A DNA stretch of 64,000 nucleotides from a bacterium (GCA_040390065.1 JAZJZE010000009.1:520556-584555); one strand, 5' to 3'; shown: positions 21,831 to 54,736, counted from the first letter of the stretch. Numbers and translations: made by a program. Notes: generated from the sequence alone by a model not told the origin.

Positions 21831-21857
21831 GTTCCATCTGTTTCATCTGTTGACCAG
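21831..21857 (+). repeat. 9-bp-phased array GTTCCATCT GTTTCATCT GTTGACCAG
   Basis: Read directly from the sequence. It lies in the 322-bp convergent gap between the ABC-2 permease gene and pyrF. It shares ATCTGTTGACCAG with 45143-45170. Confidence 0.7.
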
Positions 21858-21868
21858 TCGTCGGCGCG

Positions 21869-22729
21869 TCACCGAAACGGCATCTCGGCCGCCAACTTGT
21901 GCGCCGCCGTCTGCACCTGCTTGCGCCAGTCGGGACCCTTGCCGGCTTGCAGGATGGTGCGGCCGACGTTGACGACCGCGAACCGGCCCTTGCCGTCGCC
22001 GCCTTTCTCGAGGCTCGTCTTGGCATCGCCGCCCTGGGCGCCGACTCCAGGAATCAGGAGCGGGACGCCGTCGCCGCAGATGCCGCGCAGTTGAGCAAGC
22101 TCGTCGGGATAGGTCGCGCCGGCGACGAGTCCGAGGTTGTGGAATTCGCGGTCCCACTCCATTGCCTTGCGCGCGACGGCCTGGTAGAGCGGCATGCCGT
22201 CAACCTTCAGGTCTTGGAAGTCGCCGGCCGACGCGTTGGAGGTGCGCGCCAGGAGAAAGACGCCCTTGTCGGCGTAGCGGGCAAACGGCTCCACCGTATC
22301 GCGGCCGAGGTAGGGCGTCACCGTCACGGCGTCGGCGCCGAGTCCGTCGAATGCTGCCTCTGCGTACTTCGTCGCCGTGTTGCCGATGTCGTTGCGCTTG
22401 CCGTCGAGGATGACGGGGAGTCCCGGCGGCATGGATTCGATGAGGCCGTGCAGCGCGTCGTGGCCGATATCTCCGAGGGCTTCAAAGAAGGCCGCGTTGG
22501 GCTTGACGCAGCAGGCGACGTCGGCGACGGCCTCGACGACGGAGTGGCAGAACTCCAGAGTGTCCTCCTCGTGCAACTCCTCGGGGAAGTGCTGCGGGTC
22601 AGGGTCGATGCCGACGCAGAGCCACGAGTTGGCCCGTTTCGCGGATGCGACGAGACGCTCGCGGAAAGACTCGGCCACCACGATTGGCGATGCTGTGGCC
22701 TGCCTAAGGGGTTTGGGGACCGCCGCCAC
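21869..22729 (-). CDS. pyrF: Orotidine 5'-phosphate decarboxylase (type 2)
   Basis: ORF of 286 aa with LCVGIDPD, CCVKPNAAFFE, VILDGKRNDIGNTA, DAVTVTPYLG and LIPGVGAQGG. GTG 22681 is an alternative start that avoids overlapping the upstream gene. Confidence 0.9.
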   Translation of the reverse strand: MAAVPKPLRQATASPIVVAESFRERLVASAKRANSWLCVGIDPDPQHFPEELHEEDTLEFCHSVVEAVADVACCVKPNAAFFEALGDIGHDALHGLIESMPPGLPVILDGKRNDIGNTATKYAEAAFDGLGADAVTVTPYLGRDTVEPFARYADKGVFLLARTSNASAGDFQDLKVDGMPLYQAVARKAMEWDREFHNLGLVAGATYPDELAQLRGICGDGVPLLIPGVGAQGGDAKTSLEKGGDGKGRFAVVNVGRTILQAGKGPDWRKQVQTAAHKLAAEMPFR

Positions 22730-23798
22730 GCGGCCAAACGGCGGCGGCCCAGGTGGCGTCCGGGCTCGGCGACGCCACCGAAGTCACGAACCGGCCTTCG
22801 GTCCCTCGTGTCGAAGGCGGAGGGAAGCCAAGGAAACAGAGGGCGCCTTCCACAGTGGGGGTCAGTGCAGGTGGACAGGCGCACAGGGACCGAGAGGATG
22901 AGATGTACAGAGGATTGTTGACGTCGCGAAACTCGGCGTCGAACGTCATGAAGGGCTGGAGGCTCGAGGCAAAATGATGCAAGCCGTCGTCCATGGTCGC
23001 GTTGTAGGGATGCATCCGGCCCATTTCCCAATGCGCCATGCCGGGGTACGGCCTCGGGTCCCGGATGGCGATGCCGGTGGGCGACGCCAACGAGAAGTAC
23101 GGAGTGGCACTGTGGCTCACGCGCATGACGGCCCGGAAGGTCAAGTCCTCCGGATTAGGAGCCGGGCCCCCGTCGCCCACTTTACCGACGGTCCAGACCG
23201 GAGCAACATCGTCGATGGTCCAGTTGTCACTGGCCGCATGGAAACCTCCCGACGGCTCCGCCTGAGCAGGAGTCCAATTCGCCGGATACAGGACCCCGAG
23301 GAGCCACGGATTTGGGTCAGTCAGATCGACGGGAAACCTCACGAAGCCAGCAGACGGGCCCGTCCATGTGAAGAAAACCGAGGCGTTCTCCGTGCGAAGC
23401 TGCACGGCGCCGCGGACCTCATCGTGCGTCAGCCGCGTAGCGTTGTACAGCACTCCAATCTGGTGACCCAACAGATCCGGCGGCTCGTCGGGCCGGACGG
23501 GCGTTCGACCGTAATACGTGTACCAATCGGGAAAATCGGCCCCGACGGGGAGGCGTTGATCGTCGAACGTTAGGCAGGACCAATCCAGGGGTGGATGCGC
23601 CTCGACGAGAACGTCTACGATGGAGTGCGGCCGTGGTTCGCAAGTGACGTTGGTCCCGCCGGGCAAGGACGGGCATCCAACGTATGCCGCCATCGGCTGA
23701 ACATTGCCCAAGGGGGGCGATGACTGTTGGGGCGTACCGGTACAGCCGCAAACGACGACAGCGACGGAGAGGACGACGCCCAACCGGCCCGCACGCAT
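22704..23798 (-). CDS. Hypothetical lipoprotein
   Basis: Within ORF 22704..23987. ATG 23798 gives MRAGRLGVVLSVAVVVCGCTGTP. TTTAAG (23823-23828, minus sense CTTAAA) lies about 27 nt upstream. Confidence 0.65.
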   Translation of the reverse strand: MRAGRLGVVLSVAVVVCGCTGTPQQSSPPLGNVQPMAAYVGCPSLPGGTNVTCEPRPHSIVDVLVEAHPPLDWSCLTFDDQRLPVGADFPDWYTYYGRTPVRPDEPPDLLGHQIGVLYNATRLTHDEVRGAVQLRTENASVFFTWTGPSAGFVRFPVDLTDPNPWLLGVLYPANWTPAQAEPSGGFHAASDNWTIDDVAPVWTVGKVGDGGPAPNPEDLTFRAVMRVSHSATPYFSLASPTGIAIRDPRPYPGMAHWEMGRMHPYNATMDDGLHHFASSLQPFMTFDAEFRDVNNPLYISSSRSLCACPPALTPTVEGALCFLGFPPPSTRGTEGRFVTSVASPSPDATWAAAVWPRGGGPQTP

Positions 23799-23822
23799 GC
23801 GGCCTGGATTTGGCCGCGCCTG

Positions 23823-23828
23823 TTTAAG
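23823..23828 (-). promoter_or_regulatory. TATA-like box for lipoprotein gene 22704..23798
   Basis: CTTAAA (minus sense) is centred about 27 nt upstream of ATG 23798. Confidence 0.35.
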
Positions 23829-23935
23829 GGAATTGGCCAAGCCGTGCGAATAGGTGGCGAAGACAACAGGTGGCGGGAGCCCACGTCGGCCCGGGCGGCC
23901 GCCACGGGCAGGATTATGTTCTGTCCGGCCGTCGA

Positions 23936-24553
23936 ATGGCCATGGCCCCGGACCTGGCGTTCCATCCCCTTCGGGAACACCAGGCATCTCCCGCGCGGCT
24001 GGCGGAACTCCTCACGGAGGCGAAGGCCGTCCTGTTGGACCGAGGCATGGCCGACATGGAGGAATACGGGGACATGCTCAAGTGGGGCCTGCCGCGCTGC
24101 GACGGCAAGTGCCGCAGCATGCACGTCTACCACCCCGATTGGTGCAGTTTCAGCGACCGGTTCCGCGGCACCATCCACTACCACGGCGGCGCCATCCGCG
24201 GCACGCTGCTTCTCGGCGGCTTCGAGCACTCCATCTACGAGGCGACGCGCGACCCGCAGGGCGACCGCTTCCACAACGGCGAGGCCTACCGCCTCACCAG
24301 GCACACCCGATTGCAGAGCGCCGGCACGACGTACGACTTGCCCGCGATGGTACCGCACTGGCTGAAGCCGACTCGGCTCACCCTGACCAACTTCGAGGAA
24401 GACGACAACGGCCTCATGGGCGACCTCGTCAATCCAGCCGCAGACGTCGACATCGACGAGCACCGGTGGACGCAGGCGCAGGCGGATGCGTTGCTGCCCG
24501 TGCTGCTCGAGTTCATCGATGCGAAGCTGGCCGAATTGACCGTCCTGGCTTGA
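23936..24553 (+). CDS. Hypothetical protein, possibly cupin-like
   Basis: Within ORF 23870..24553. ATG 23936 is preferred because GATTATG lies about 21 nt upstream. GTIHYHGGAIRGTLLLGGFEH is a His-rich beta motif. No family confidently recognised. Confidence 0.55.
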   Translation: MAMAPDLAFHPLREHQASPARLAELLTEAKAVLLDRGMADMEEYGDMLKWGLPRCDGKCRSMHVYHPDWCSFSDRFRGTIHYHGGAIRGTLLLGGFEHSIYEATRDPQGDRFHNGEAYRLTRHTRLQSAGTTYDLPAMVPHWLKPTRLTLTNFEEDDNGLMGDLVNPAADVDIDEHRWTQAQADALLPVLLEFIDAKLAELTVLA

Positions 24554-24664
24554 GGCGGCCCGGACAGGCCCCTCGGCGCCCGGAGGCGACGAGGGGCACA
24601 TCTTGGCCGTCGAAGCGGAGCGTCCGCGACGCTGAGACGGCGTAAGTGTGAATCGCGAAGCGAT

Positions 24665-25048
24665 TCACATCTTCGTGATCATCTGGCGGCCCATCGCCAC
24701 GATGTAGGAGACGTCGGCGCCGGCCACGAGGCCTTCGGCGAACTCCTCGGGGACCTGGATGTCGAAGGTCTCGAAGGATTCCTTGTCCATGAGTTGCGCC
24801 GTGCCGGCGTGGAACGAGAGAAGCTGCGCCTGGCGGCGGTCGACGATGGGGACCCAGACCTTGTCCGAGACGGTGCCCAGCAGGGTGCGCTTGGCGTTGG
24901 TGAAGATGCTGCGGGCCTCGATGCGGGCCTTCGAGGCGCCGTGCTTGCCCGGCTTGGACTTCTCGATGGAGTCGATCTTGCACGGCTCGTCGTCGATCAA
25001 CACGAAGCGGCCTTCCTTCAGTTCGCGGATCTCCGCCTGTTCCTTCAT
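24665..25048 (-). CDS. eif5a: Translation initiation factor 5A (aIF5A)
   Basis: Within ORF 24665..25069. Hypusination loop SKPGKHGASKARI and FVLIDDEPCKI. ATG 25048 (MKEQAEIRELKEG) gives the canonical length. Confidence 0.93.
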   Translation of the reverse strand: MKEQAEIRELKEGRFVLIDDEPCKIDSIEKSKPGKHGASKARIEARSIFTNAKRTLLGTVSDKVWVPIVDRRQAQLLSFHAGTAQLMDKESFETFDIQVPEEFAEGLVAGADVSYIVAMGRQMITKM

Positions 25049-25098
25049 ACGGCTCCTCGGGCCGGGCACAGTTGGGGGTTGATAAAGGGTTTCGAGGG

Positions 25099-26175
25099 CT
25101 ACGCCGGCTGGACGCCGTTCGTGGCCGGCGTAAAGGTCGTGCCGAAGAGCAGTGGGGAGGGGTAAGGATGCGCCGGCGCCGACCAGTCGTATTGGAAGGA
25201 CCAGGGTCCAAATTGTCGAGAGAACTCCAGCTCGATGATGCCGGGCGGAGCGACGGTCTCCACGGTTCCATCCGGGCGGACATATCTTGCATGGCCGTCC
25301 GTGGCGTTTTCCAAGCCGGTTCCTTGCGGGCCCACCGAGGAAAACGGCAGGAAGCCAAGGACGAGGGTTTTCCCGTCAATTCCCAGCGAGCGGTCGAGTT
25401 GCACCATGGCGCTGGCCTGCACATCGTAGCCGGCCGATGCGGCGCCGACTTGAGCACCCTGCTGGGCATCGCTTCGTTTCGCAAGAAAGACTCCCTCCGC
25501 GTCGCCGTAAGAAACCGACAAGGCAGTGTTGTTCCAGTGGCCCTGCAGGGTTGGGGGGGCCGCAAGCTCCGTGGACAGCAGCATGAAGATGTGCCCAAAT
25601 GCGTCTGGGCCGCACATGCGTTGCGCCGCTTTCCATCCCTCGCGGGTTACGTCAACAACGAGGGATATCCTGCTTCCGTCGGTCCCCTGGAGGATGCCCA
25701 TGTCAGGCCCGGGTCCTGTGGCGTTGGCTTGCTTGGCGCCTGCCCCGACCCAGACGGCGGTCATCGGTGGCGCTCCAGTCGTGAGCTCGGACATCATGCC
25801 CCAACAGTCGCGCCATTCCGCTCCTTGCAACCTGGGCCCGCCAAATCCCACCGTAAAAATCTGGTTGGTCGTGGACTTCGGGGGCATCGTCCAATTGACC
25901 CACAACCGCAGGTCGCCATCCATATGGTCCCCTCCGGCGGGAAACGAAATGTCAATCCAAACCAATCCCGGAACGGTTCGGCGCAGGGTTCCGCTGGTGG
26001 GAATGAGTTGCGGCGTATCGTGTCCCTGATTGGTCCCCGCGACCACTTGGGTTGCCGGCGCCCTGGAGGAGTCGGATTCTGGCGGGAGGCTCGCTTCATT
26101 GGTAGGCCGGTGGGCGCTGCAGCCTGCCAGCACGAAACCAAGGAAGAGGAGGGGGAGGAGCAGCCGGCCTAGCAT
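25099..26175 (-). CDS. Hypothetical lipoprotein
   Basis: ORF of 358 aa with MLGRLLLPLLFLGFVLAGCSA (signal plus lipobox). No family recognised. Confidence 0.65.
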   Translation of the reverse strand: MLGRLLLPLLFLGFVLAGCSAHRPTNEASLPPESDSSRAPATQVVAGTNQGHDTPQLIPTSGTLRRTVPGLVWIDISFPAGGDHMDGDLRLWVNWTMPPKSTTNQIFTVGFGGPRLQGAEWRDCWGMMSELTTGAPPMTAVWVGAGAKQANATGPGPDMGILQGTDGSRISLVVDVTREGWKAAQRMCGPDAFGHIFMLLSTELAAPPTLQGHWNNTALSVSYGDAEGVFLAKRSDAQQGAQVGAASAGYDVQASAMVQLDRSLGIDGKTLVLGFLPFSSVGPQGTGLENATDGHARYVRPDGTVETVAPPGIIELEFSRQFGPWSFQYDWSAPAHPYPSPLLFGTTFTPATNGVQPA

Positions 26176-26621
26176 GTTGCCGTGGCCGTCTGTTCGGCGC
26201 CGTCGGAGGGATCAACCACAAGGTGGAAGTGGCCGATGATTGAGGCATAGGCCGTAATGGACTCCCCCGTGTTCATGAGGTGGCTTGCGGCGCCGTCCTG
26301 GTGCGTGCCAGGGTCGATTGCGCCCGGTACGTTGACGCCCGTTGTGTGGGTGTAGTATGAGACGCCGTATTCGTAGTCATAATCGGCGAGGGTCGACGAG
26401 CCACTGACGCTTGTGAACCACTCGGCGCTGCAACCGCTTCCGTAGGGGTGCAGGATGACCCAGGCAACGGCAGTGGTGGTGATGCACTGGGCAGGAGGAG
26501 TGCCGTAGAGAGTCTGGCAGATAGTGGCTGCGTCCGGCGTCCCGGACACCGGCAGCGCCGTCAATACGAGCATTCCCATTGCAATCAAGCCGAACATCCT
26601 GGGCATAGAGTTGTTGGTCAT
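26169..26621 (-). CDS. Hypothetical small secreted protein
   Basis: Within ORF 26169..26714. ATG 26621 gives MTNNSMPRMFGLIAMGMLVLTALPVSG (signal peptide). The upstream part of the ORF reads through a C12 homopolymer. Confidence 0.55.
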   Translation of the reverse strand: MTNNSMPRMFGLIAMGMLVLTALPVSGTPDAATICQTLYGTPPAQCITTTAVAWVILHPYGSGCSAEWFTSVSGSSTLADYDYEYGVSYYTHTTGVNVPGAIDPGTHQDGAASHLMNTGESITAYASIIGHFHLVVDPSDGAEQTATATC

Positions 26622-26665
26622 TGCGTTTGTCCTGACCCCACCGTGAGGCCAAACGCTGCCAAGGC

Positions 26666-26677
26666 GGGGGGGGGGGG
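26666..26677. repeat. G12 (C12 on the coding strand) homopolymer
   Basis: Counted in the sequence. It sits between an ATAGATA TATA-like element (minus sense, about 26679-26686) and the ATG at 26621. Confidence 0.9.
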
Positions 26678-26775
26678 TATCTATCTGCCGGCGAGATGAC
26701 TGGAACGATTCCAACAGCAGGCCGCCTCCCGACCGATTCGAGAACGCTTATCCTCCGCCGCCCAGGTGGTCGCCT

Positions 26776-28314
26776 GTGGCAGGAGGGCGGCTGCGAAGTC
26801 TTGGCGTCCTGGTCGCCGTCGCAATCGTCGCCGTCGCGCTCGGCCAGGCCCAGACCAGTGGCCCTACGGATCTCGAATCGTCCCGTTGTTGGACGTGCCA
26901 CAAGGTCGGCGGCACTGTCGAGGGCACGCCGCTCAAGGTGATGTATTCCCTGCATCCGCCGGGCAGCCTGGCGCTAGCCCCGGGGACGCCGACACCGCTC
27001 AACCTCGAGGTGCGCAACGACTGGCTGGCAAACCTGCACAACATCGTGGGCACCCTTGACTTGTCGAAGGCGCCGTCGCTGGCGTTCCAGCCGCCGCCCG
27101 CGCCCGTGACTGGCGTCCACGTCGACGGCTCGCTGCCGTTTACCGCGACGCAACTCAACCAGCCGGAACGGACGACGGTGCTCAAACTGCCCGTGCCTGC
27201 TGGCGCCACGGACATCCGCGTCACGCTGTCGCCCACGCGCACGACGGGCGCCGACGCCCCCGACCTTGCTCTGCGCATCTGGGGCGACGGCATCTTCGCG
27301 CAGCCCGCCACCGCGCGCTCCGTCGACAACGCCGGAAAGGGCCTGCCCGAGGTGTTCCACACGAAGGACGCGGACACCATCGGCGCGCTGGGCTACGGCA
27401 ACTGGTCGGTGGCGGCCGTGCAAGCCGGCTTCTCGACGAAGCCCGATGCCGCGGCACTCGAGGAGCAGGGGTTCAGCATCGCCATCGACGCCTGGTTCAA
27501 CCTGACCGGCGACCGGACGCAATTCGTCGGCTCCACGGCGCGCCTCGACGGCAAGAGTGACGGCCCTCACTCGACCACTCTGACGTGGAACCTTTTCGTG
27601 CGTGCGCCGCCACACGTCGGCGAAGAGCTCGTGTTCACCGTGAACGCCGTCGCCTCGTTCCAGCATCCAGCACAGTTCAACGCCGTCGACGACTGGGCCT
27701 TCACCCAGACGCTGCACGTGCCCATCCAGCCACCGCCCCCCACGACGGACACCGGGGGACCACCGCCGCTTACGAACATCCAACTCAACACGACGCCCAC
27801 GCCGGACACCGCGTTGGAGGTTGACCATCTGGTCATCACGGAGAAGGCCGTCGGCGAGGCGGTCGGCTACTTCACGGCCTTCGTCATGGTCGTGAGCCTC
27901 GTCACGGGCGGAATCTTCGGCAGCGCCAGTCGCCGCGGCCTGAACCGCATCCTCACCAGTGCCCAGCGCCGCATCGCCTTCCACAACCTCACGAGCTACC
28001 TCATCCTCATCGCCGCCGCCGCACACACGTACTTGTTCATCCACGAAGCCGAATTCCCATGGACCTTGGGCTTGCTGTGGGGTGGCCTCGGCATCCTCGC
28101 ACTTGCAGCCCTTGGCGTGACGGGGGCATGGCAATTGCCGCTCATCCGCAGTTGGCATTACGGCCCCTGGCGCGTCGTGCACTACACGTGCGCCGTGCTC
28201 GCAGTCGTGTTCACCCTCCTGCACATGGGCCTCGACGGCATCCACTTCACGAACCTGCAGAAGGACGTAGGTTGGCAAGACCCGGTCGGGAAGTGGCTCG
28301 GCACCACCGCCTAA
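26776..28314 (+). CDS. Membrane redox protein: signal peptide, one CXXCH haem-c motif, large extracellular region, C-terminal 4-TM four-His (di-haem-b-like) domain
   Basis: ORF of 512 aa. CWTCH at residues 38-42. C-terminal helices contain FHNLTSYLILIAAAAH and HYTCAVLAVVFTLLH, each a His pair 14 residues apart. Confidence 0.7.
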   Translation: MAGGRLRSLGVLVAVAIVAVALGQAQTSGPTDLESSRCWTCHKVGGTVEGTPLKVMYSLHPPGSLALAPGTPTPLNLEVRNDWLANLHNIVGTLDLSKAPSLAFQPPPAPVTGVHVDGSLPFTATQLNQPERTTVLKLPVPAGATDIRVTLSPTRTTGADAPDLALRIWGDGIFAQPATARSVDNAGKGLPEVFHTKDADTIGALGYGNWSVAAVQAGFSTKPDAAALEEQGFSIAIDAWFNLTGDRTQFVGSTARLDGKSDGPHSTTLTWNLFVRAPPHVGEELVFTVNAVASFQHPAQFNAVDDWAFTQTLHVPIQPPPPTTDTGGPPPLTNIQLNTTPTPDTALEVDHLVITEKAVGEAVGYFTAFVMVVSLVTGGIFGSASRRGLNRILTSAQRRIAFHNLTSYLILIAAAAHTYLFIHEAEFPWTLGLLWGGLGILALAALGVTGAWQLPLIRSWHYGPWRVVHYTCAVLAVVFTLLHMGLDGIHFTNLQKDVGWQDPVGKWLGTTA

Positions 28315-28357
28315 AGGTTGAAGGGCAACCGTCAAGAGCCACCGCGCCCCATGGCGG

Positions 28358-30645: not shown

Positions 30646-30697
30646 GCCGCGGGCAGGCAACCCAAGACCTAAACCCCCTCCCCGTAGTGGCGCAAGC

Positions 30698-42235: not shown

Positions 42236-42247
42236 CGCCGACGGAAC

Positions 42248-42320
42248 GAACCACTGAAACCACTGAACGCACTGAAACGCCGGACGGTAGTTCAGTGGGT
42301 TCAGTGAGCTCAGTGGTTAG
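42248..42320. repeat. Inverted pair of triple 9-bp repeats (CACTGAA x3 / TTCAGTG x3)
   Basis: CACTGAA at 42253, 42262 and 42271. (T/C)TCAGTG at 42291, 42300 and 42309. The arms can pair over about 24 of 30 positions. It starts 13 nt after the priL stop. Confidence 0.8.
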
Positions 42321-42505
42321 GGCGGCGGTGCCGCGTGGTTGACGCCCCCCGAATCGCCCAGAACACTGAGCGCGTTGAACGTGTCGTGGGTAGCCCAGTG
42401 AAGTCCGTGCGTTCGGTGGCTCGGCCGGGGTCCAGACGGAGCACCGACAGTGGAAAGGGAGGGTTGAGCGTTGTCTCGAGGCCGTATGTTCCGCGGGCGA
42501 CGTTC

Positions 42506-42847
42506 ATGTTGCGGCTGGCCTCCGTACTACTTGCGCTCGTCAGCGTGACTCAGATATTGGTCTCCCTTGCGCGCCTTTTCTCCCTTCGCCCTTGGGCGAT
42601 TGGCTTCTTCATCTCTGGCCTCCTGGCCGGATGCGCGGCGTGGGGCGCCTGGAACAGCAAGGCTTGGGCGCGCTGGGTGAGCTACGCGAGCCTGGCCGTG
42701 GCGGCCGCGGCGACGGCAATTGGTAGCTACGGACAGTCATGGGCCTGGCTGGCCTGGTGGTGGTGGGCCGGGTCGTACCTCTGGCCTGAATTGGCCTTGC
42801 ATGCCGCGATGATCCGTCGCCCCTTGGCCGAGGTGCCGCGTGCCTGA
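42506..42847 (+). CDS. Small Trp-rich membrane protein (113 aa)
   Basis: Within ORF 42335..42847. ATG 42506 gives MLRLASVLLALVSVTQILV, with 3-4 TM segments. It overlaps the priS start by 8 nt. Confidence 0.55.
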   Translation: MLRLASVLLALVSVTQILVSLARLFSLRPWAIGFFISGLLAGCAAWGAWNSKAWARWVSYASLAVAAAATAIGSYGQSWAWLAWWWWAGSYLWPELALHAAMIRRPLAEVPRA

Positions 42848-44216
42848 CGCATCCGATTCGTCGGTGAAATCGGTGGTTCCGCCCGAGGCGAAACCAACCG
42901 CGCCCGAGCAACCTCCAGCTAAACCTCCGCAGCCCACCACGTTCCCCCCCGCCGTCGCGAAGACGATTGACTGGCTGCAAGGCCAATACGCCGATTGGTA
43001 CCGCGACAACCCGCCACCGATGCCGGACCGCTTCACGCGCCGCGAATTCGGTTTCATCCTGTGGCCAGACAAGCCGGGGCCGCCGCCATTTGTCCGGCAC
43101 CGCGCGTACGAGAACGCCGATCGCTTGCATTGGTACTTGCAGAAGCAGGGTCCGCACTCGGCGTACTACTCGACGGCGTACTACCGCCGGCCGGGCGAGA
43201 TGAAGATGCTCGACAAGCAGTGGCTCGGCGCGGAACTCATCTTCGACTTGGACGCCGACCACCTCGTCGAAGCCGAGAAGGCGAAGGCGGAAGGCCACGA
43301 GATGCCGCTGGCCGAGCAGCTCGCACTCGTCAAGACGCAGTTCAAGCGCCTTCTTGACGAATTCCTCTTCGGCGACTTCGGCCTCGGAGAAGACGACGTG
43401 TGGATCACGTTCAGTGGCGGCCGCGGCTACCACGCCCACGTCATCGAGGAGCGCCTCATGCAGTTGGATTCCAAGGCGCGGCGCGAGATCGTCGACTACA
43501 TCACCGGCAAGGTGCCGACGGAGAAGGGCACCGAAAAGCCGGACCTGTCGCTGTTCATCACGGAGACCACCGTTGCCGCGGATTCGTTTGCCGGACGCAC
43601 CAAGAAGCTCACTCAGGAGCGCATGGCGCCGGCGGGGACGCCCGGATGGCCCGGTCGCCTTACGCGCACGCTGGCCCAGACGTTGCGGACGCACGTGCTC
43701 GATGCCGAAAAGAAGGACGCCAAGCGGTGGCTCACCAGCATGGACGGCATCGGCGAAGGCGGGGCCACGAAGTTCATCGAGCGCTTCGATGAGAAGTCCC
43801 TGGCCCGCATCGAGCAAGGGTTCGTCGACCAGGGCCCAGTCATCCGTCGCATCTGTTACCACGTCCTGCAGCAGGCCACGATCCCGATGGCCAAAGGCGA
43901 GACGGACGAGCCCGTCACGGCGGACACGAAGCGCCTCATCCGCCTGCCGGGAAGCCTGCATGGCAAATCGGGGCTCAAGGTCGTGACCTTGCGCCGCGAC
44001 GACTTGGACGCCTTCGAGCCGCTGCGCGACGCGGTCGCGTTCAGCATGGAGCCGACGCGCATCGTGCCCCGCAACGACGCCGAGATGACGCTGGCAGGGG
44101 AACGCGTCGTCGTGAAGAAGGGCGAAGCCGTCGACGTGCCGAAAGCGCACGCCGTCTTCTGGCTGGCGCGCCAAGGCGGGACGATTTTCCAGGAGCAGCC
44201 GTCCACCAACCGTTAA
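42840..44216 (+). CDS. priS: DNA primase small (catalytic) subunit PriS with Pro-rich N-terminal extension
   Basis: ORF of 458 aa (GTG start). The catalytic motifs ELIFDLDADH and ITFSGGRGYHAHV are present, plus RLIRLPGSLHGKSG. Confidence 0.93.
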   Translation: MPDASDSSVKSVVPPEAKPTAPEQPPAKPPQPTTFPPAVAKTIDWLQGQYADWYRDNPPPMPDRFTRREFGFILWPDKPGPPPFVRHRAYENADRLHWYLQKQGPHSAYYSTAYYRRPGEMKMLDKQWLGAELIFDLDADHLVEAEKAKAEGHEMPLAEQLALVKTQFKRLLDEFLFGDFGLGEDDVWITFSGGRGYHAHVIEERLMQLDSKARREIVDYITGKVPTEKGTEKPDLSLFITETTVAADSFAGRTKKLTQERMAPAGTPGWPGRLTRTLAQTLRTHVLDAEKKDAKRWLTSMDGIGEGGATKFIERFDEKSLARIEQGFVDQGPVIRRICYHVLQQATIPMAKGETDEPVTADTKRLIRLPGSLHGKSGLKVVTLRRDDLDAFEPLRDAVAFSMEPTRIVPRNDAEMTLAGERVVVKKGEAVDVPKAHAVFWLARQGGTIFQEQPSTNR

Positions 44217-45065: not shown

Positions 45066-45142
45066 ATCCGCCCGCTCGGGTCAACAGATGCTCGAGATGA
45101 CGACGGCTTTTCCGTCACGACTTCGCCTCCGTCGTCGGCATC

Positions 45143-45170
45143 GGTTTCATCGGTTCAATCTGTTGACCAG
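45143..45170 (+). repeat. 9-bp-phased array GGTTTCATCG GTTCAATCT GTTGACCAG
   Basis: Read directly from the sequence, 78 nt downstream of the gins51 stop. Near-copy of the array at 21831-21857. Confidence 0.7.
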
Positions 45171-45202: not shown

Positions 45203-45210
45203 CAAATAGG
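45203..45210 (+). promoter_or_regulatory. TATA-like box for ORF 45233
   Basis: CAAATAGG is centred about 26 nt upstream of the ATG. Confidence 0.35.
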
Positions 45211-45232
45211 CCCGCGAAACTCGCCGAGAACG

Positions 45233-45580
45233 ATGCCCGACCGCACCCCCTTCCGCAAGCAGCCGTTCTCGGATGAGGAAGCGGAGAAACTGTACCACAA
45301 CTCGCACGACCTTCGCGAGATGTACACGCGGGAGAACACGGAACGCCGCCGCGCCGGGGCGCACACGCTTCGCCGCTACCTGACGACGGCGCAGGATAAG
45401 CTTCTCACCGCCCACATGACGAAGATCCGCGACGAGTACGAGACAGCCAACAACGACGACGTCGTCGTGGTGTTCGTGCAGAAGGCCATCGCCGAGGGAA
45501 AGACAGCCGAGTTTGCTCCGCAGCTCGTGGAGTATGCGAAGAAGGCCGTCGTGCCGAAGCGGACGACGCCGGTATACTAG
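45233..45580 (+). CDS. Hypothetical protein (115 aa)
   Basis: ORF 45233..45580. CAAATAGG (45203-45210) lies about 26 nt upstream of the ATG. The protein is helical and charged. No family recognised. Confidence 0.6.
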   Translation: MPDRTPFRKQPFSDEEAEKLYHNSHDLREMYTRENTERRRAGAHTLRRYLTTAQDKLLTAHMTKIRDEYETANNDDVVVVFVQKAIAEGKTAEFAPQLVEYAKKAVVPKRTTPVY

Positions 45581-45711
45581 TCGGCGTTCAGGCTAAATAC
45601 CACCTCCGTGTCGCCAACCTTGCCTTCCGTAGATTTCCCCGCCACCGCATCCCTTGGGAGCGGACGTCGGGACAGTCTTCGCCGTTGGAAGGCCGGCGAA
45701 GGTGTGATACC

Positions 45712-46008: not shown

Positions 46009-46181
46009 CCGCAATCCGTGCTCAATTCGTGAAAGTGAAGTGCGGCGACTGCGGCAACGAGCAGATCGCCTTCAACCGCGCGGCCACCAAGGTCAACTGC
46101 CTCGTCTGCGGCGCAACCCTTGCGACGCCGACCGGCGGCGAGGCCAAGTTCAAGGCGGAAATCACGCACACGTTCGATTAG
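46005..46181 (+). CDS. rps27e: 30S ribosomal protein S27e
   Basis: Within ORF 45936..46181. ATG 46005 overlaps the L44e stop (ATGA). [38 protein letters not shown]. Confidence 0.93.
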
Positions 46182-46197
46182 TCTTGCGTCCAACGGT

Positions 46198-46319
46198 GTC
46201 CAGGTTTGGCCCTTAGCGCAAGCTCGGCCAGCATTGGAATCCACAGAATCCTGCGTCGAAGCGCTGTCAAGGTTTGGCCCCCGCGCCGAGCTCGCCCAGC
46301 ATTGGAATCCACCGAATCC
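46198..46319 (+). repeat. Two ~54-bp direct repeats (46198-46251 and 46266-46319)
   Basis: GTC(C/A)AGGTTTGGCCC..GC.C.(A/G)AGCTCG(G/C)CCAGCATTGGAATCCAC(A/C)GAATCC occurs twice, 68 bp apart, between the convergent rps27e and membrane-protein genes. Confidence 0.8.
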
Positions 46320-46360
46320 ACAGAAAGTAGCGGGCGGTTTCGGTGGATTCAGTGGATTCC
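46304..46360 (-). terminator. 18-bp-stem hairpin built from GGAATCCAC 9-mers; candidate 3'-end hairpin
   Basis: GGAATCCACCGAATCCAC (46304-46321) pairs with GGTGGATTCAGTGGATTCC (42-60 of the same kb). The single C-A mismatch on plus becomes G-U on the minus strand. It lies 19 nt downstream of the minus-strand stop at 46379. Confidence 0.4.
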
Positions 46361-46378
46361 TGTTTCAGTGGGGCCGCG

Positions 46379-46846: not shown

Positions 46847-46904
46847 AACCCTGGAGAAAACCGGTCCCCTAAAGCCTGATATCAGAGACGCTTCTCCCCA
46901 AACC

Positions 46905-47708: not shown

Positions 47709-47709
47709 G

Positions 47710-47886
47710 ATGACGAACGCCCTCATGCGGTATTGCGGCACCTGCTCCGAGTACACGCTGAAGGAGGCCTGCCCGCGCTGCGGCGGCAAGACGGCGCAGA
47801 AGACGCCGGCCAAGTTCAGTCCCGAGGACCATTACGGCGAGTACCGACGCAAGCTCAAGAAATTGGATGCGTCCGAGAAGGCGTAG
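47710..47886 (+). CDS. nop10: H/ACA RNP protein Nop10
   Basis: Within ORF 47602..47886. ATG 47710 lies 1 nt after the aIF2-alpha stop. MRYCGTCSEYTLKEACPRCGGKT...PAKFSPEDHYGEYRR. Confidence 0.92.
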   Translation: MTNALMRYCGTCSEYTLKEACPRCGGKTAQKTPAKFSPEDHYGEYRRKLKKLDASEKA

Positions 47887-47898
47887 GGCATCGGTCCA

Positions 47899-48319
47899 TC
47901 GAAACCAACCAACTTGCGGCCACGTCAACCTCCGACGGCGGCGACGCGCACGAGGTGGCCGCTTGCTTGAGTTTGGGCGGCCTGGAAAAACAGTGAACCC
48001 CATGAAACGGCAGGCGACAGGACATCGGTTTCCCTGGGTTCGGGTGGTGCACTATTTTCCGCGGCCTCCCACACTCAGCGACGCCCCGCAAGCAAGATGA
48101 ATCCCAGCCCCCCCGGCGGCCCCCGCGCGCTCGCTACGCATCGCGCACTGGCCTCGCCCTCGCACGCCCGCGCTGCGCTGCGGGCTGCTCGCCCCGACCG
48201 GGGGCCCGCTTCGCCTTTCCTCCATTCCCTCAAGGCGTCGGCGCCGTCGGAGGACGACGGGAATGGCTCGGTGGCTTGGACAAGCAGGAATCAGTCCAAT
48301 CCGTGCAATCCGTGGTTCG
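47899..48319. repeat. Left copy of long inverted repeat (IR-L)
   Basis: Reverse complement of 54268..54736. Identical blocks include 48063-48085 = rc 54550-54572 (23 nt), 48243-48270 = rc 54327-54354 (28 nt) and 48088-48106 = rc 54529-54547. The centre is diverged and carries indels. Confidence 0.85.
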
Positions 48320-48331
48320 CGTGGGCGACGG

Positions 48332-49288: not shown

Positions 49289-49482
49289 CCCTCCTGAGAG
49301 TCATCCGGAGGGCTGCTAACCGGGCGGACGCTGCTTCCAGATTGAAACCTATGTTCGCTGTGGAAGTGGTTAAGGCCGGAGGTTAGGGGAACGGCTGCTG
49401 GTATCCTGCGCGACACCAAGGAGGTCTCCCGGCCGAGAAGAAACGAATGTGGAACGAGGGGAAGAGGAAGCGTTGGAGGTTC

Positions 49483-50232
49483 TCAGTCGTCGCCCTTGGC
49501 GTGGCGGCTGCGCTCGTCTTCGGCGTCGCGTTCGCGCATGCGCTCGCGGCGTTCGTCGTCGTGCGGCCGGTCGCCCTTCTCGCTCTCGAGATGCAGGACG
49601 GGCTTCAGCATCCACTTGCCGTTGCCGGTCTGGTGGAGGCTGCGGTCGAGGTCGAAGTCGATGGTGAGCTTCGTCTCCTTTCCGTCGTCGACGGTGAAGT
49701 GTCCCTTGATGCGCAGGTTGTGGCCCGGCACGGTCACGTTCGCCGTGCTGCCATCCTTGAGCGTGAGGCTCGCGGAGTCGACGGTGAGGCGGATCTGGTT
49801 GTAGGCGCCGACGGGTACGTCCGCGTCGCCCAGGAAGGCGCTTGCCGAGCCGTTGAAGGCCAGCAGGTCGACCGTGGTGGGCTTGTCCATGACCGTGATC
49901 CAGGCGCTCTCGTTGTCCGTGTCGTTGTCCTGTTGGACCTCGATGCTGATGGCGATGCGGCCGTGACCCGGTGCGGCGGAGACGTTGGCGCGCGCCGATT
50001 CATCGTCGCGTTCCTTCTCCTCCCGCTCCTGCTCCTCGCGTTCGGAATCGTTGTCGGTCTGGTGCAACTGCACCTTGCTGAACGTGACGTACACATGCGT
50101 CACGTCGTCGGTGGGGGCGTCCTTGACGAAGACGGAAGCCGTGCCCGTGGACCCGCTGGCTGACATGCAGCCGGCAAGGGCGGTGACTGCCAACGTCGCG
50201 ACGAGGGCGATGCCGATGGTTCGATGGTTCAT
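49483..50232 (-). CDS. DUF4382-like lipoprotein with acidic insert and tail
   Basis: C-terminal 249 codons of ORF 49483..51714 from ATG 50232. MNHRTIGIALVATLAVTALAGCMS, VFVKDAP, VDLLAFNG, PVGAYNQIRLTV and DFDLDRS. The rest of that ORF is a shadow of aspS. Confidence 0.7.
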   Translation of the reverse strand: MNHRTIGIALVATLAVTALAGCMSASGSTGTASVFVKDAPTDDVTHVYVTFSKVQLHQTDNDSEREEQEREEKERDDESARANVSAAPGHGRIAISIEVQQDNDTDNESAWITVMDKPTTVDLLAFNGSASAFLGDADVPVGAYNQIRLTVDSASLTLKDGSTANVTVPGHNLRIKGHFTVDDGKETKLTIDFDLDRSLHQTGNGKWMLKPVLHLESEKGDRPHDDERRERMRERDAEDERSRHAKGDD

Positions 50233-50330
50233 GTTGTTCGCACCTGCCTTGTCCCTGCGCGGGACGGCATATAGGGCATATCGGTCATTTGTCGAAGAAA
50301 CGCGCGATGGCGGTTGCCGCAAACGAAAGT

Positions 50331-51701
50331 CTACGGCGTGACCCGTGTCACGTCGCGCGGGAACAGGATTGCTTCGCGGATATTGGGCAATCCCAGCATC
50401 ATCATGAGAATCCGTTCGATGCCGATGCCGCAGCCGCCATGCGGTGGCATGCCGTACTTGAACGCCTCGAGGTAGGCCATGAAGTCCTTCGGGTCGAGAC
50501 CCCAGCGCCGGATGCCTTGCTCCAGGAGGACGGGGTCGTGGATGCGTTGGCCGCCGCTGATGAGTTCGACGCCGCGGTAGTCCAGGTCGAAGCCGCGGCA
50601 CAGGCGTGAGTCCATCGTGCCGTCTTCGGGCATGACGTAGAACGGCTTGGGGGCAAGAGGCCACTTCGTGATGAAGTAGAAATCGTGGCCCTCGCGCTTC
50701 ATGGCACGCCACAGCACTTTCTCGGCGGCGCTCCCGATGTCGTCGCCGAACTTCAGTTCCGCCATGCGCAAGTCGGCGTCGAGGTCCGCGGCCTTGAGTT
50801 CCTGGTTGATGATGGCAAGCGCATCCTCGTACGGGACGCGGCGGAAGGGTTGGCGCGGCACCTTGACGTCGGCGCCGAGGACGGCGACCTCGTCCGGCGT
50901 CTCCGTCACGACTTCGGCCCAGATGTGGCTGAGGAGCCCCTCGATGCTCTGCATGACGTCCTCCTCCGACTCGATGAAGGATTGCTCGATGTCGAACGCC
51001 GTGGACTCGTTCAGGTGCCGCACCGTGTTGTGCTTCTCGGCGCGGAAGTACCAGCCGACCTCGAAGACCTTGTCCAGGCCGCCGGCCATCATCATCTGCT
51101 TGTACAACTGCGGGCTCTGCGCGAGGTACACCTTCTTGCCGAAGTAGTCGAACTTGTAGGTGTCCGTGCCGCCCTCCGACGAGGCTCCGAGGATGTTGGA
51201 GGTGTGGATCTCGGTGAAGCCGTTGGCGCGCAGCCACGTCGTTCCCGCCTCGATGACCTTGGCGCGGATGGTGAAGATGGCCTTGCTGCGCGGGCCCCGC
51301 AGGTCGAGGAAGCGGTGGTCGAGGCGCGTGTCGAGGCCGGTCTCGATCTTGTCGTCCCAGACGGCGAACGGCAGCGGCGTCGCGGCGGCGTTGAGGACCT
51401 TTCCGCCCGTGGGGATGACCTCGAAGCCCGCCTTCGCCTTCTCCGTCTTCTGCACGAGGCCGGTGAGGCTCACGACGGATTCGGGTGTGAGGGCGACGAT
51501 CTGGTCGAAGAGCGCACCGAGGCCCTTGCCCTGCATCTCCTCCTTCTTGCACACGAACTGCACTTGCCCTGTCCGGTCGCGAAGGACCAGGAATGCCATG
51601 ACGCCCTTGGCGCGCACGGCGTGCACCCAGCCAGCAAACGTCTGAGTCGTGCCGAAGTGCGCGGGCGTGACCTGGCCGCAGCCGAGGGTTCGGAGGGTCA
51701 T
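50331..51701 (-). CDS. aspS: Aspartyl-tRNA synthetase, archaeal type
   Basis: ORF of 456 aa with OB-fold N-terminus, FLDLR, class II motif 2 YFRAEKHNTVRHLNES and motif 3 GGCGIGIERILMMMLG. Confidence 0.95.
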   Translation of the reverse strand: MTLRTLGCGQVTPAHFGTTQTFAGWVHAVRAKGVMAFLVLRDRTGQVQFVCKKEEMQGKGLGALFDQIVALTPESVVSLTGLVQKTEKAKAGFEVIPTGGKVLNAAATPLPFAVWDDKIETGLDTRLDHRFLDLRGPRSKAIFTIRAKVIEAGTTWLRANGFTEIHTSNILGASSEGGTDTYKFDYFGKKVYLAQSPQLYKQMMMAGGLDKVFEVGWYFRAEKHNTVRHLNESTAFDIEQSFIESEEDVMQSIEGLLSHIWAEVVTETPDEVAVLGADVKVPRQPFRRVPYEDALAIINQELKAADLDADLRMAELKFGDDIGSAAEKVLWRAMKREGHDFYFITKWPLAPKPFYVMPEDGTMDSRLCRGFDLDYRGVELISGGQRIHDPVLLEQGIRRWGLDPKDFMAYLEAFKYGMPPHGGCGIGIERILMMMLGLPNIREAILFPRDVTRVTP

Positions 51702-51743
51702 CGCGAGTTTGCACCCGATGCGGCGCTTAAGGGCAGCGGCGCC

Positions 51744-52313
51744 TTACTTCGCCTTCTTGCTGGCCGCCTTCGGGGTTGGCGGGGCTGCGGGTGGGGCAGC
51801 GGCCATGGGCTGCGCGGCGGGACGAGCCATCATGAGTTGCACCATGGGCCAGGCGAGGACGAGGCAAAGCGCCGCGGCAAACAGGGTGAGGGGCGCCGCG
51901 CCGCCGTAATCGGATGCCGGGGTCGTGAAGGCCAGGATGGCCGTCAAGGCTGCGATGGCAAGCCCGGCCTGGAACAGCCAGGCGGGCGACAGCGACGGCC
52001 GGCGCACGTACAGGATCACGCCGACGGGGACGAGGCAAGCCAGGACCGTGAGGGCAAGGCGGATGTCGCCGACGCTGGGGATGATGGTCTTGTTGTTGCC
52101 GTAGACCGGGAAGTTGAGGAGCGGGACGAGGCCGACGAGAAGGGTCACAATTCCCAGGACGAGGTTGGTTCGGCCACGGGAAAGCAAGACGAGAACCCCG
52201 GTCACCATGATGGCCGCCACGTCGACCAGCGGCACGACGTCCCCGCCGACGACAAGGGATGCCGCGCCAAGGACGGCGCACACGGTTCCAGCAATGGGCA
52301 GGGCTTTGCTCAT
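51744..52313 (-). CDS. Hypothetical polytopic membrane protein with Ala/Pro/Lys-rich tail
   Basis: Within ORF 51744..52445. ATG 52313 gives MSKALPIAGTVCAVLGAASLVVGG, with 5-6 TM segments. Confidence 0.6.
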   Translation of the reverse strand: MSKALPIAGTVCAVLGAASLVVGGDVVPLVDVAAIMVTGVLVLLSRGRTNLVLGIVTLLVGLVPLLNFPVYGNNKTIIPSVGDIRLALTVLACLVPVGVILYVRRPSLSPAWLFQAGLAIAALTAILAFTTPASDYGGAAPLTLFAAALCLVLAWPMVQLMMARPAAQPMAAAPPAAPPTPKAASKKAK

Positions 52314-52448
52314 GCCATCAGATTGACGACCGTGATAGAAACGCTTCGCACGCGACGCGGCGGCACGAAACGGACGGCCGGCGCATCTGGGCTGAACCGA
52401 ATCGGCGCGTTCCATGCGTGGCAGCCCGGAGAGCAATCTGCGCAAGAT

Positions 52449-54107
52449 TCACTCGCGGTTGCCCTTGAAGCCCTCGCTCCAGAACACCATGACGAGGATC
52501 CATGCGACCAGGATGGCTCCGGCGCCGAAGAGGAATTGGCCGACGCGCGCCGACGGCGCCGCCGACGAGTAGACGAGGGCGAGGCCGAGGACCAGCGCGG
52601 CGGCCATGATCGTGAACCCGGTCTTGAGGATACCGCGGCCTTGCGCTGACTTGATGCCCTCGAGGCCCGCGACCTCGACGCGCGTCGTGAGTTCGTTGCG
52701 CTCGATCTTGCGCAGTACCGTGTTGAGGGTGTGCGGCAACGTCCGGCCGAACTTGAGAAGCTCTGTCAGCGCCTCCTGCACCATCTCCTTCTGCGCGCCC
52801 GGGCTGGAGATGTTCTTCCAGGCGACGTCGGCCACGAACGGGTCGAGGACCTCCACGAGCTCGAAGTCGGGGTCGAGGGTTCGGCAGATGCCCTCGAACT
52901 GGAACAGCGCCCGCGTGATGAGCGCGAAGTCCGGGGGCAGGAGCATGCGGTGGCTGCGCGCCAGGCCCACGATGAGGTCCATGAGGACCGGGTCGGCCAC
53001 CGAGACCTGCTCCCGGTCGATGTAGTCCATGATGCGCTCGACGTCGGCGCGCAACCGCTTGGAATCGACTTCCGCCCGCTGGTCGCAAAGGTCGAGGATG
53101 GCTTCGACGGTCCCTTCCACGTGGCCGCCGCCCAACGCCGTGATGAGTTGCAAGATCGTCTTCGCGCGGCGCTCCGAGACGATGCCGACGGCGCCGAAAT
53201 CGAGGAAGGCGACGACGTTCCCGGGCAGGATGAGGATGTTGCCCGGCGACGGGTCCGCGTGGAAGACGCGGTCCACGAAGATCTGCTTCGCCATGGATTC
53301 CGTGAGAATGCGCGCCACACTCGGCCCGTCGACGCGCGACAGGGCAAGGGGCCCGGTGAGCTTCACGCCGTCCATGAACTCCATCACGAGGACCCGCTTG
53401 CTGCACAGCTCAGGGACGACTTCCGGGATGCGGACCTTGCTGTTGCCACGACAGTTGTCCGCAATGCGCTGCGTGTTGCGCATCTCGTAGCGGTAGTCCA
53501 GTTCGCGCTCCATCATGAGGCGCAGCTCCTCCAGGTGGTCGGATGGTTGCCAGACCCGCGAGCCGGCGAAGGTCTTCTCCACGAAGGTGACCAGCCTCCG
53601 GAGAATGCGGAAGTCGGCCTCCATCTCCTCCTCGATGTCCGAGTGCTGCACCTTCACCGCGACGCGGCGTCCGTCCCGGAGTGTCGCCTCGTGGACTTGC
53701 CCGATGGACGCGCTCGCGATGGGAACGGGGTTGAATGCGGCGAAAACCTCGCTCGCGTCGCGGCCCAACTCGGCGCGGATGATGCGGGCCACCTCGTTTG
53801 GCGACGTGGCCGGCGCCTGGTCGTACAGCTTACGGAACTCCTCGACGTACTCCTTCTCCAGGAGATCGGGGCGCGTGGCCAGCAGTTGGCCGAGCTTGAT
53901 GAAGGTCGGGCCAAGTTGCTCGAGGAGCTTCCGGGTCCGCACCGGCGCGGGCTCCAGGTTCTCGGGCTGCGCCTTGCCGCGAAGGACCGTCGACAGGAGT
54001 CCCCACGCGTTGTTGCGAATCAGGATGGTGAGGATCTCGTTGAAGCGCGAACGACGGCGCCGCACGGCGAGGGCTTCCGCGACGGCTTCGGGCACGGTGT
54101 GGGCCAT
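52449..54107 (-). CDS. ubiB: ABC1/UbiB-family atypical protein kinase
   Basis: Within ORF 52449..54326. ATG 54107 gives MAHTVPEAV. LGPTFIKLGQLLATRPDLL, ASASIGQVHEA, VAVKVQH, HADPSPGNI and two C-terminal TM helices. Confidence 0.9.
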   Translation of the reverse strand: MAHTVPEAVAEALAVRRRRSRFNEILTILIRNNAWGLLSTVLRGKAQPENLEPAPVRTRKLLEQLGPTFIKLGQLLATRPDLLEKEYVEEFRKLYDQAPATSPNEVARIIRAELGRDASEVFAAFNPVPIASASIGQVHEATLRDGRRVAVKVQHSDIEEEMEADFRILRRLVTFVEKTFAGSRVWQPSDHLEELRLMMERELDYRYEMRNTQRIADNCRGNSKVRIPEVVPELCSKRVLVMEFMDGVKLTGPLALSRVDGPSVARILTESMAKQIFVDRVFHADPSPGNILILPGNVVAFLDFGAVGIVSERRAKTILQLITALGGGHVEGTVEAILDLCDQRAEVDSKRLRADVERIMDYIDREQVSVADPVLMDLIVGLARSHRMLLPPDFALITRALFQFEGICRTLDPDFELVEVLDPFVADVAWKNISSPGAQKEMVQEALTELLKFGRTLPHTLNTVLRKIERNELTTRVEVAGLEGIKSAQGRGILKTGFTIMAAALVLGLALVYSSAAPSARVGQFLFGAGAILVAWILVMVFWSEGFKGNRE

Positions 54108-54267
54108 GGCCTGCGTCGGTTTAAGAAAGAAGGGGGCGGCGCCCGCCCCGACTTCTCCACAGATTTCGCGGAATCGTCGGTCTGCATTCGGGCGAGCTCT
54201 TGCACGTCCTGCACGCACTCCGACTGGGAGCAGATTCCGCCGATTGACGTTCAGGCCTGCTCCGGTT

Positions 54268-54736
54268 CGAACCACCGAACGCACAGAACATACCGAACCG
54301 CCGGGGAACCTACGTGTCCAAGCCAACGAGCCATTCCCGTCGTCCTCCGACGGCGGCGACGTCGTGAAGGAATGGCAGGAGACTGGGGCGACGCCCGGTC
54401 AACCGACGCAACGGACGCAACCGACACCGACGAGCCCCCGGCCGGGGCGAGCGACTGCGCCGCGAAGCGCGCAGAGCGAGGGCGTGGCAAGCCGCGAGGC
54501 GAAGCCGCGGCGAGGGCCGCCGGGGGCCTGGGATTCATCTTGCTTGCAGGGCGTCGCTGAGTGTGGGAGGCCTCGGAAAACAGTGAACCACCCGAAACCA
54601 GGGAAACCCATGTCGTGTCTCCTGCCCTTTCATGTGGTTCACTGTTTTTCCAGGCTGCCCACACCCCACTATGCGGCCACCTCGTGCAAGTCGCCGGCGC
54701 CGCAGGATGATGTGGCCGGGAGGTGGTTGGTTTCGA
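54268..54736. repeat. Right copy of long inverted repeat (IR-R)
   Basis: See IR-L. It contains an internal palindrome, GGAAAACAGTGAACCAC (54575-54591) against GTGGTTCACTGTTTTTCC (54634-54651). Confidence 0.85.

Follow-up and report, generated by a model that had tools for sequence, protein, structure and literature searches.

Nine-bp-phased arrays between the genes of an archaeon: candidate recognition arms of GxxExxY nuclease genes

Introduction

What kind of element consists of a few nine-bp units in strict phase, and why should it recur in the spacers between unrelated genes? The question is raised by a stretch of 64,000 nucleotides of prokaryotic DNA (GCA_040390065.1 JAZJZE010000009.1:520556-584555; hereafter 'the window'), in which a first-pass annotation, made from the sequence alone, drew attention to short 9-bp-phased arrays at seven intergenic loci. 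We followed these arrays through the genome and its relatives, and conclude that they are, on balance, probably the arms of a repeat family tied to genes for GxxExxY (PDDEXK_3) nucleases: recognition arms for the nuclease, that is, and self-propagating.

The host is an archaeon, as the window genes for ribosomal proteins L44e and S27e (our own reading of the open reading frames, ORFs), PriL, PriS, Gins51 and aIF2-alpha indicate. The window is part of contig C9 of a 2.68-Mb assembly of 66.8% GC and 89% completeness, labeled G000 here. Genes were called genome-wide with a crude caller of our own—2406 genes, 85% coding—and the division of arrays into coding and intergenic classes depends on it. 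The comparison set comprised 12 congeners (G001-G012, G004 being the closest) and 28 genomes of other genera in the same class. Rfam and tRNA scans of the window returned zero matches.

Reality and anatomy of the arrays

Runs of intergenic DNA that resemble themselves at a lag of 9 bp number 51 in the whole genome, and 1-8 at each other lag between 5 and 15; in coding DNA, lags 6, 9, 12 and 15 are equally raised, as codon repeats predict. Three copies of the core TCNGT at 9-bp spacing are found at 71 places between genes and 7 within them, a density per kb some 57 times higher in intergenic DNA; any other spacing yields 0-1 intergenic occurrences and at most two coding ones. A signal so far beyond chance upholds the dispersed, phased family that the first-pass annotation proposed. 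Six of its seven loci are true members; the seventh, 49351-49375, has no TCNGT core phased at 9 bp and drops out, and three members that had been overlooked—54399-54425 on the minus strand, 42403-42420 and 42860-42877—come in. The arrays had also been described as confined to intergenic DNA. This confinement is strong, but it is not absolute: array copies lie in frame within the seryl-tRNA synthetase gene (C17:43035-44456) and within a gene, C9:397995-399329, that we read by eye as a luciferase-like oxidoreductase.

Among arrays of three or more units, 76 of 77 have exactly three. Two main types predominate. The first, A (23 arrays), is tTCAGTGnn three times over, ending TTCAGTGGT-TcG; the second, B (52 arrays), is ATCkGTTnC three times over, ending ATCTGTTGA-Cc. 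In both, the outermost unit is the conserved one, and the outer ends of arrays read ACCAC.../...GTGGT and TCAAC.../...GTTGA. Units of the second type differ according to position—ATCGGTTTC, ATCTGTTCC and ATCTGTTGA, for example—and these differences are common to copies at unrelated loci; the 27-nt arm is therefore copied whole, without local slippage. Such shared variants, together with types that are specific to species, fit loosely with the earlier suggestion that the arrays propagate themselves.

An inverted partner faces the inner side of 49 of the 77 arrays, which makes 36 pairs, the modal spacer being 10-12 nt; the remaining arms are solo. When paired arms are compared, complementarity is 89-100% at core positions but only 31-47% (Watson-Crick) at the final two positions of units 1 and 2. 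Single-stranded folding is strong for pairs (z -6.3 and -6.6) and about z 0 for solo arms. A pure RNA- or DNA-stem model was dropped because the variable positions are not kept paired. The conserved feature is a phased core of 5-7 nt, with the look expected of stacked protein-binding sites and not of a maintained stem. 'Stacked binding sites' was among the interpretations first put forward, and the phased core, its threefold occurrence per arm and the lack of complementarity between cores are consistent with it.

The nuclease gene between the arms

At one locus in the genome, G000:C17:28724-29116, arms of the second type (ATCkGTTnC) are separated not by ~12 nt, but by the gene for a protein of 125 amino acids (aa). 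The protein matches Pfam PDDEXK_3 (PF13366; E 2e-35) and NCBIfam TIGR04256, 'GxxExxY protein' (E 1.8e-38), and no other family. A second intact gene, C3:83960-84307, lies between TTCnGTGGA arms, the unit type that also occurs in the window at 46308-46356, so ATCkGTTnC and TTCnGTGGA are gene-less types with a cognate gene in this genome. Other copies comprise one frameshifted gene (C5:19073-19421), one C-terminal remnant adjoining an arm, and one degenerate gene. The frameshifted gene has ends of a further type, GGCGGCCTGGAAAAACAGTGAAC, of which there are 31 intergenic copies, including two pairs in the window. These copies, of the form GTGTGGGnGGCCTnGGAnAACAG(G/T)GAA (e.g. C11:27540-27636 and C9:568531, window 47976), compare with 0 in a reversed-sequence control, and often stand 12-15 nt outside TTCAGTG arms.

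Alignment of the proteins retains the GxxExxY motif and a D...E-x-K motif. The AlphaFold model is a confident one (pLDDT 95.5) and has as nearest solved folds Cas4 SSO0001, MGME1, AdnAB and lambda exonuclease (TM ~0.55), and on this model the protein is predicted to adopt a Cas4/RecB-like PD-(D/E)XK fold. Searches of PDB sequences, PADLOC defence families and PHROG phage families gave no match to it. A 2012 survey of the superfamily listed the function of PF13366 as 'Unknown', and noted 'multiple transfers' (PMC3424549).

Gene and arrays are co-restricted to this genus within its class. By six-frame search, every one of the 13 genus genomes has the gene, in 1-8 copies, and so has just one of the 28 genomes of other genera. 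TCNGT arrays of three number 16-132 per genome in nine of the 12 congeners and 0-2 in each genome outside the genus; with a broader core pattern, 11 of the 12 congeners have 44-448 arrays. Nearly every gene copy in the genus, moreover, lies between inverted three-unit arms. When the best inverted 27-mer around each gene was scored out of 27, 16 of 29 archaeal gene loci reached at least 23 and 25 reached at least 20; at 200 random places the mean was 17.9 and the maximum 22.

The unit itself varies from one gene copy to the next: ATCGGTG, ATCGGCG, ATCTGCG, ATTCGTG, ATCCGCG, TTCCGTG, TTCAGTG, TCCCCGTG and others. Unit type partly tracks the protein tree (the TTCGTG clade, for instance, has support 99/94), and in G009 the arm type of the gene, ATTCGTG, is also abundant as gene-less pairs. 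Because the gene sits between the arms, because the two share a genus range, and because the arm type varies with the gene copy, we take the arms to belong with the nuclease. Some gene copies occupy syntenic places in several species (loci L011 and L012).

Several smaller observations concern these loci. At seven archaeal ones (L002, L005, L006, L009, L013, L017, L026) the GxxExxY ORF extends through the right arm, which adds a tail of the kind SVSSVTSVD; bacteria of lower GC have its stop codon ahead of the arm or overlapping it. Facing pairs of two-unit arrays that end ATCTGTGTT, 170-230 nt apart (C1:123693-123960, C1:325713-325950, C5:87027-87240 and C5:98894-99100 in G000), are a further, longer type of gene-less element. 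Being flanked by arrays was tried as a criterion for the enzyme and rejected, several flanked genes looking by eye like housekeeping genes (aIF2-beta, for example).

The same design in bacteria

The closest homologues outside the genus are bacterial GxxExxY proteins, with 55-62% identity, and the four homologous loci that we fetched—from Tepidisphaeraceae, Geothrix, WOR-3 and a metagenome—have the same arm design. One of them reads ATCCACAGATTACACAGATTTCACAGA ... TCTGTGAAATCTGTGTAATCTGTGGAT, an inverted match of 27/27. We scored the best inverted 27-mer next to the gene at 80 bacterial loci, drawn from more than 12 phyla: 54 of them scored 21/27 or better and 35 scored 23/27 or better, while none of 72 displaced-flank controls from the same loci reached 21/27. 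Gene-less arrays outnumber genes here, too, in three genomes: one of Phycisphaeraceae (83 to 6), one of Tepidisphaeraceae (50 to 5) and one of Gemmataceae (48 to 3). The full unit, then—left arm, PD-(D/E)XK gene for ~125 aa, inverted right arm—has one layout in two domains. A joint archaeal and bacterial protein tree was too poorly resolved for transfers to be counted.

Most copies, including all of those in the window, have lost the gene or never had it, and remain as arm-spacer-arm hairpin-formers or single arms. What the nuclease does with its arms, and how the family moves, we infer from the sequences as follows. The nuclease would oligomerize on the phased nonamers, three sites to the arm. 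With a step of 9 bp, each site lacks ~51 degrees of a full turn relative to the one before, and successive protomers would therefore spiral around the duplex. The enzyme might then cut at or near the conserved outer unit, and the resulting breaks could allow copies to spread or to replace one another. In this manner the family would multiply and turn over wherever DNA is tolerant: mostly in spacers, and occasionally at an in-frame position within a gene.

Turnover between sister species

Related genomes do not conserve the arrays; types turn over instead, and orthologous spacers are filled differently or are empty. Copies of the exact ATCkGTTnC type ending TCTGTTGA number 28 in G000 and two in the closest congener; the rest of the 40 relatives have none. 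Ten of the 12 congeners have arrays, of differing types, in the spacer after priL (window 42236-42840), whereas in G009 and G006 that spacer is empty. TTCAGTG is found there in G000 and G004, ATCCGTG in G001, TTCGCG in G008, ATTCGTG in G012, ATCTGCG in G005 and G010, and ATCTGTG in G002. Downstream of priL in G004 (locus L033), three types stand in succession: TTCAGTG, CTCTGTG and half of an ATCTGCG arm. Re-use of this spacer is far from random, because the occupancy of any one spacer should be a few percent, and suggests either that the site is preferred or that one element replaces another there.

The S27e gene is followed by a spacer that behaves similarly. In G001, G002, G007 and G011 it contains a T-rich tract and no element; those of G000, G009 and G003 contain elements that differ in kind and in position. 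The pyrimidine- and T-rich tract, CCTCTTCCTTTCCTCTCCCTTTTT, is present in the first four, and also in G009, past a short GC-rich stretch, and in G003, past the arm; despite the high GC content it looks like an ordinary archaeal oligo-T terminator.

Weighing the explanations

A number of observations tell against a nuclease-linked, self-propagating family, and must be set beside those above. No target-site duplication or target motif was found at the flanks of pairs, on comparing filled with empty spacers, or at the indel between paralogous segments of the window, though the flanks are too diverged for certainty; in the comparison with G004, too, the spacers were too diverged to define element boundaries. 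No intact gene with TTCAGTGnn arms, the type of 23 arrays, is present in the 89%-complete G000, although a gene in G010 carries this arm type, and the dominant array types of G007 and G002 have no matching gene copy in the genome. Array number does not track gene number across the genus. That protein and arm covary could be due to their linkage and nothing more. Among bacteria, the Caldilineaceae genes (L110, L115, L117, L126) have no inverted arms (15-16/27), and one genome has four genes and one array; these genes may have been domesticated, or may have a different type of end. Nor is a 125-aa PD-(D/E)XK nuclease by itself known to perform transposition or strand transfer. On several counts, then—target duplication, cognate gene, copy scaling and size of the enzyme—the evidence speaks against a simple transposon.

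The first-pass annotation had offered two other readings, neither of which fared well. One was that the hairpin arrays are signals for transcript 3' ends or stability, in a genome too GC-rich for oligo-T terminators. Several window copies do lie 15-130 nt from a stop codon and paired copies do fold strongly, but solo arms do not, and no T run follows the hairpin pairs in the window. Arrays are distributed over tandem, convergent and divergent spacers (50, 14 and 11, respectively) as the amount of DNA in each class predicts (chi-square p=0.39); within tandem spacers, 29 arrays are nearer the stop and 19 nearer the start, a difference that is not significant (p=0.19). Elements are missing, furthermore, from orthologous spacers of sister species, and congeners that have no element after the S27e gene (rps27e) keep the T-rich tract there. 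We regard a 3'-end signal as very improbable. The other reading, microsatellites, taken here as products of local replication slippage, has the short tandem units to commend it, yet copy number is fixed at three in all arrays but one, and position-specific unit differences recur at distant loci; it is scarcely credible.

More serious are two readings in which the arrays are sites for a host protein. They might be sites for an unrelated host protein, nucleoid-associated or regulatory, among which nuclease genes merely happen to sit. A phased core with non-complementary variable positions does suggest recognition of duplex DNA, but chance residence hardly accounts for a gene-between-arms layout in two domains and more than 12 phyla, for arm sequences that change with the gene copy, or for a genus-restricted distribution common to gene and arrays, and we think it unlikely. 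A stronger competitor, tentative but well short of negligible, is a host system of the Ssn kind. GxxExxY would then be a site-specific nuclease, acting perhaps on single-stranded DNA, and its dispersed sites would serve the cell—by restraining incoming or recombining DNA, for example—and would spread and be kept on account of that service, without being mobilized by the protein. The published Ssn/NTS system has the same layout, with repeats that are cut by the nuclease and dispersed in hundreds of copies (PMC11893778); the synteny of some gene copies across species agrees with it, and retention of gene and arrays throughout the genus would fit a useful function. Types that turn over between sister species, multiple paralogues with different arms, pseudogenes and truncated copies, and in-frame insertions in essential genes do not sit comfortably with such a function, however, and the patchy, non-taxonomic protein tree looks more selfish than host-functional. 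Recognition arms of a self-propagating, nuclease-linked family remain the reading that we favor.

The arrays in the window

The members in the window are collected in Table 1. Two arrays had been placed at the inner tips of long inverted repeats, and so they are: 47894-48319 and 54271-54741 are homologous precisely as far as the array end, GTGGTTCG. These repeats, ~430 nt long and 84-90% identical, bracket a 6-kb segment of five minus-strand genes, including those for a fatty-acid desaturase and an ABC1 kinase, and recombination between them could invert the segment. The two copies differ in the variable core base of the arms at their tips, and a 37-nt single arm is present in one only. Our caller found no gene in 54107-55722; the repeat elements end at ~54741, and so leave 54790-55720 unexplained.

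Of the two-unit arrays around priS, that in the priL-priS spacer is probably a decayed arm. The other lies at the edge of priS as called, and the true start of priS may be downstream of it, because congeners begin priS right after priL.

Table 1. Array-related features of the window (positions counted from its first letter)
Feature	Position	Strand	Units	Context
Solo B-type arm	21827-21853	+	TTCTGTTCC ATCTGTTTC ATCTGTTGA then CCAG	16 nt from stop of OMP decarboxylase gene (21869-22729, -); partner arm looked for, none found; no fold (z +0.3)
A-type inverted pair	42250-42317	42250-42276 (-), 42291-42317 (+)	ACCACTGAA ACCACTGAA CGCACTGAA, 14-nt spacer, TTCAGTGGG TTCAGTGAG CTCAGTGGT	Begins 15 nt past priL stop; single-stranded fold -24.2 kcal/mol, z -6.3; common to G004, other congeners having other types or nothing there
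Two-unit array	42403-42420	+	GTCCGTGCG TTCGGTGGC	priL-priS spacer
Two-unit array	42860-42877	+	GTCGGTGAA ATCGGTGGT	5' edge of called priS ORF
B-type element with reduced left arm	45078-45166	right arm +	Single unit GGTCAACAGATG (45078-45090) facing ATCGGTTTC ATCGGTTCA ATCTGTTGA (45140-45166)	Between Gins51 gene and gene 45233-45580; weak fold (z -2.8); a 57-nt stretch resembles 21828-21884 (repeat family D6)
68-bp module in tandem duplicate, plus two-unit inverted pair	46185-46356		Each module copy ends in half arm GGAATCCACnGAATCC	Downstream of S27e gene; duplicate 46185-46319 directly after the gene, 84% match
Two-unit inverted pair	46308-46325, 46339-46356	-, +	TTCTGTGGA TTCGGTGGA; TTCGGTGGA TTCAGTGGA	Fold z -6.6; unit type also flanks intact gene G000:C3:83960-84307
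Left long-inverted-repeat copy	47894-48288		Gene-less pair of second end type, GTTTGGGCGGCCTGGAAAAACAGTGAAC plus inverted partner, ~47969-48078; the end type that flanks frameshifted gene G000:C5:19073-19421	
Solo arm	48290-48316	+	ATCAGTCCA ATCCGTGCA ATCCGTGGT then TCG	Inner terminus of left long inverted repeat; 16 nt from stop of fatty-acid desaturase gene; no fold (z -0.2)
Solo arm	54271-54297	-	TTCGGTATG TTCTGTGCG TTCGGTGGT then TCG	Inner terminus of right long inverted repeat; homologous in position to 48290-48316, variable core base differs
Right long-inverted-repeat copy	54309-54741		Pair of second end type at 54561-54664	
Solo B-type arm	54399-54425	-	GTCGGTTGC GTCCGTTGC GTCGGTTGA then CC	Within ~37 nt (54394-54430) missing at homologous point (~48205) of left copy

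Relation to known systems

Ssn, with its NTS repeats, is the closest published analogue. Ssn proteins are small nucleases of the GIY-YIG type; their genes have hairpin repeats at the flanks, which the enzymes cleave in single-stranded DNA and which are dispersed in hundreds of copies (Chenal et al. 2025, PMC11893778). In both systems a small nuclease gene has hairpin repeats on either side, tens to hundreds of repeats are dispersed, and variants of the repeat go with variants of the nuclease. The Ssn fold is GIY-YIG, however, whereas that of GxxExxY proteins is PD-(D/E)XK (PF13366), and NTS is a single short hairpin motif whereas the arms described here have three phased nonamers each. The activity of Ssn has been demonstrated in vitro; the GxxExxY system is known from its sequence.

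REP/REPIN-RAYT systems (PMC3116915, PMC3733652) are alike in having many extragenic palindromic doublets, an enzyme gene that is flanked by repeats, and a separate repeat population for each lineage of the enzyme. RAYT identity was rejected: Y1/HUH transposases (PF01797), the one transposase family searched for, had zero matches in the 13 genus genomes, the control being positive in 6 of 14 known genomes. REPIN repeats have a GTAG or CGTC head (PMC3733652), and the arrays here have none. They differ, too, in their phased-array arms and in having several paralogues of the gene per genome, some of them decayed.

Insertion sequences (IS) and miniature inverted-repeat transposable elements (MITEs) share with these elements the terminal inverted repeats, an excess of gene-less derivatives over gene copies, and species-specific families; they differ in that the only gene here encodes a 125-aa nuclease core, and in that no target-site duplication was found on the diverged flanks. 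Terminal inverted repeats with several phased protein-binding sites occur in Mu, in Tn7 and in the inverted repeat/direct repeat (IR/DR) ends of Sleeping Beauty. Rickettsia palindromic elements are short palindromic repeats that can lie in frame inside essential protein-coding genes, and are similar to the present arrays in this regard; we know of no enzyme gene associated with them, and of no phased nonamer arms.

Even within the GxxExxY family there are differences. Bacterial loci mostly use ATCTG(C/T)Gnn units, while this archaeal genus has at least a dozen unit types.

Implications

The GxxExxY/PDDEXK_3 family is very large; its function is given as 'Unknown' (PMC3424549), and the open-access literature rarely mentions it. 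In the literature that we searched on family names and repeat words, this nuclease-linked repeat family has no published description of its arms. New for this genus are the three-unit rule, the lack of complementarity at variable positions, the joint restriction of gene and arrays to a single genus, the dozen or more types and the re-use of spacers.

A bolder proposal, which we consider speculative, is that GxxExxY proteins are the sole enzymes of unrecognized and very small mobile elements of bacteria and archaea, that they read three nonamers at each end, and that their specificity co-evolves with these ends as the elements spread in the manner of homing. If this is so, then a dozen or more nonamer 'address' types would repeatedly colonize the same spacers, such as that between priL and priS, or replace one another within them, a homing-like and site-reusing form of spread.

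The DNA signature of three phased nonamers per arm turns an obscure family into a testable system, in which the reading of a 9-bp code, specificity and DNA movement can each be approached, and the genus, with its many paralogues, each with a nonamer of its own, amounts to a natural experiment. Should specificity prove to be programmable, practical use might be possible, as has been argued for Ssn. For annotation, recognition of the arms accounts for many hairpins, odd spacers, N- or C-terminal extensions of ORFs and in-frame inserts, both in uncultured Thermoplasmatota and in numerous bacterial genomes.

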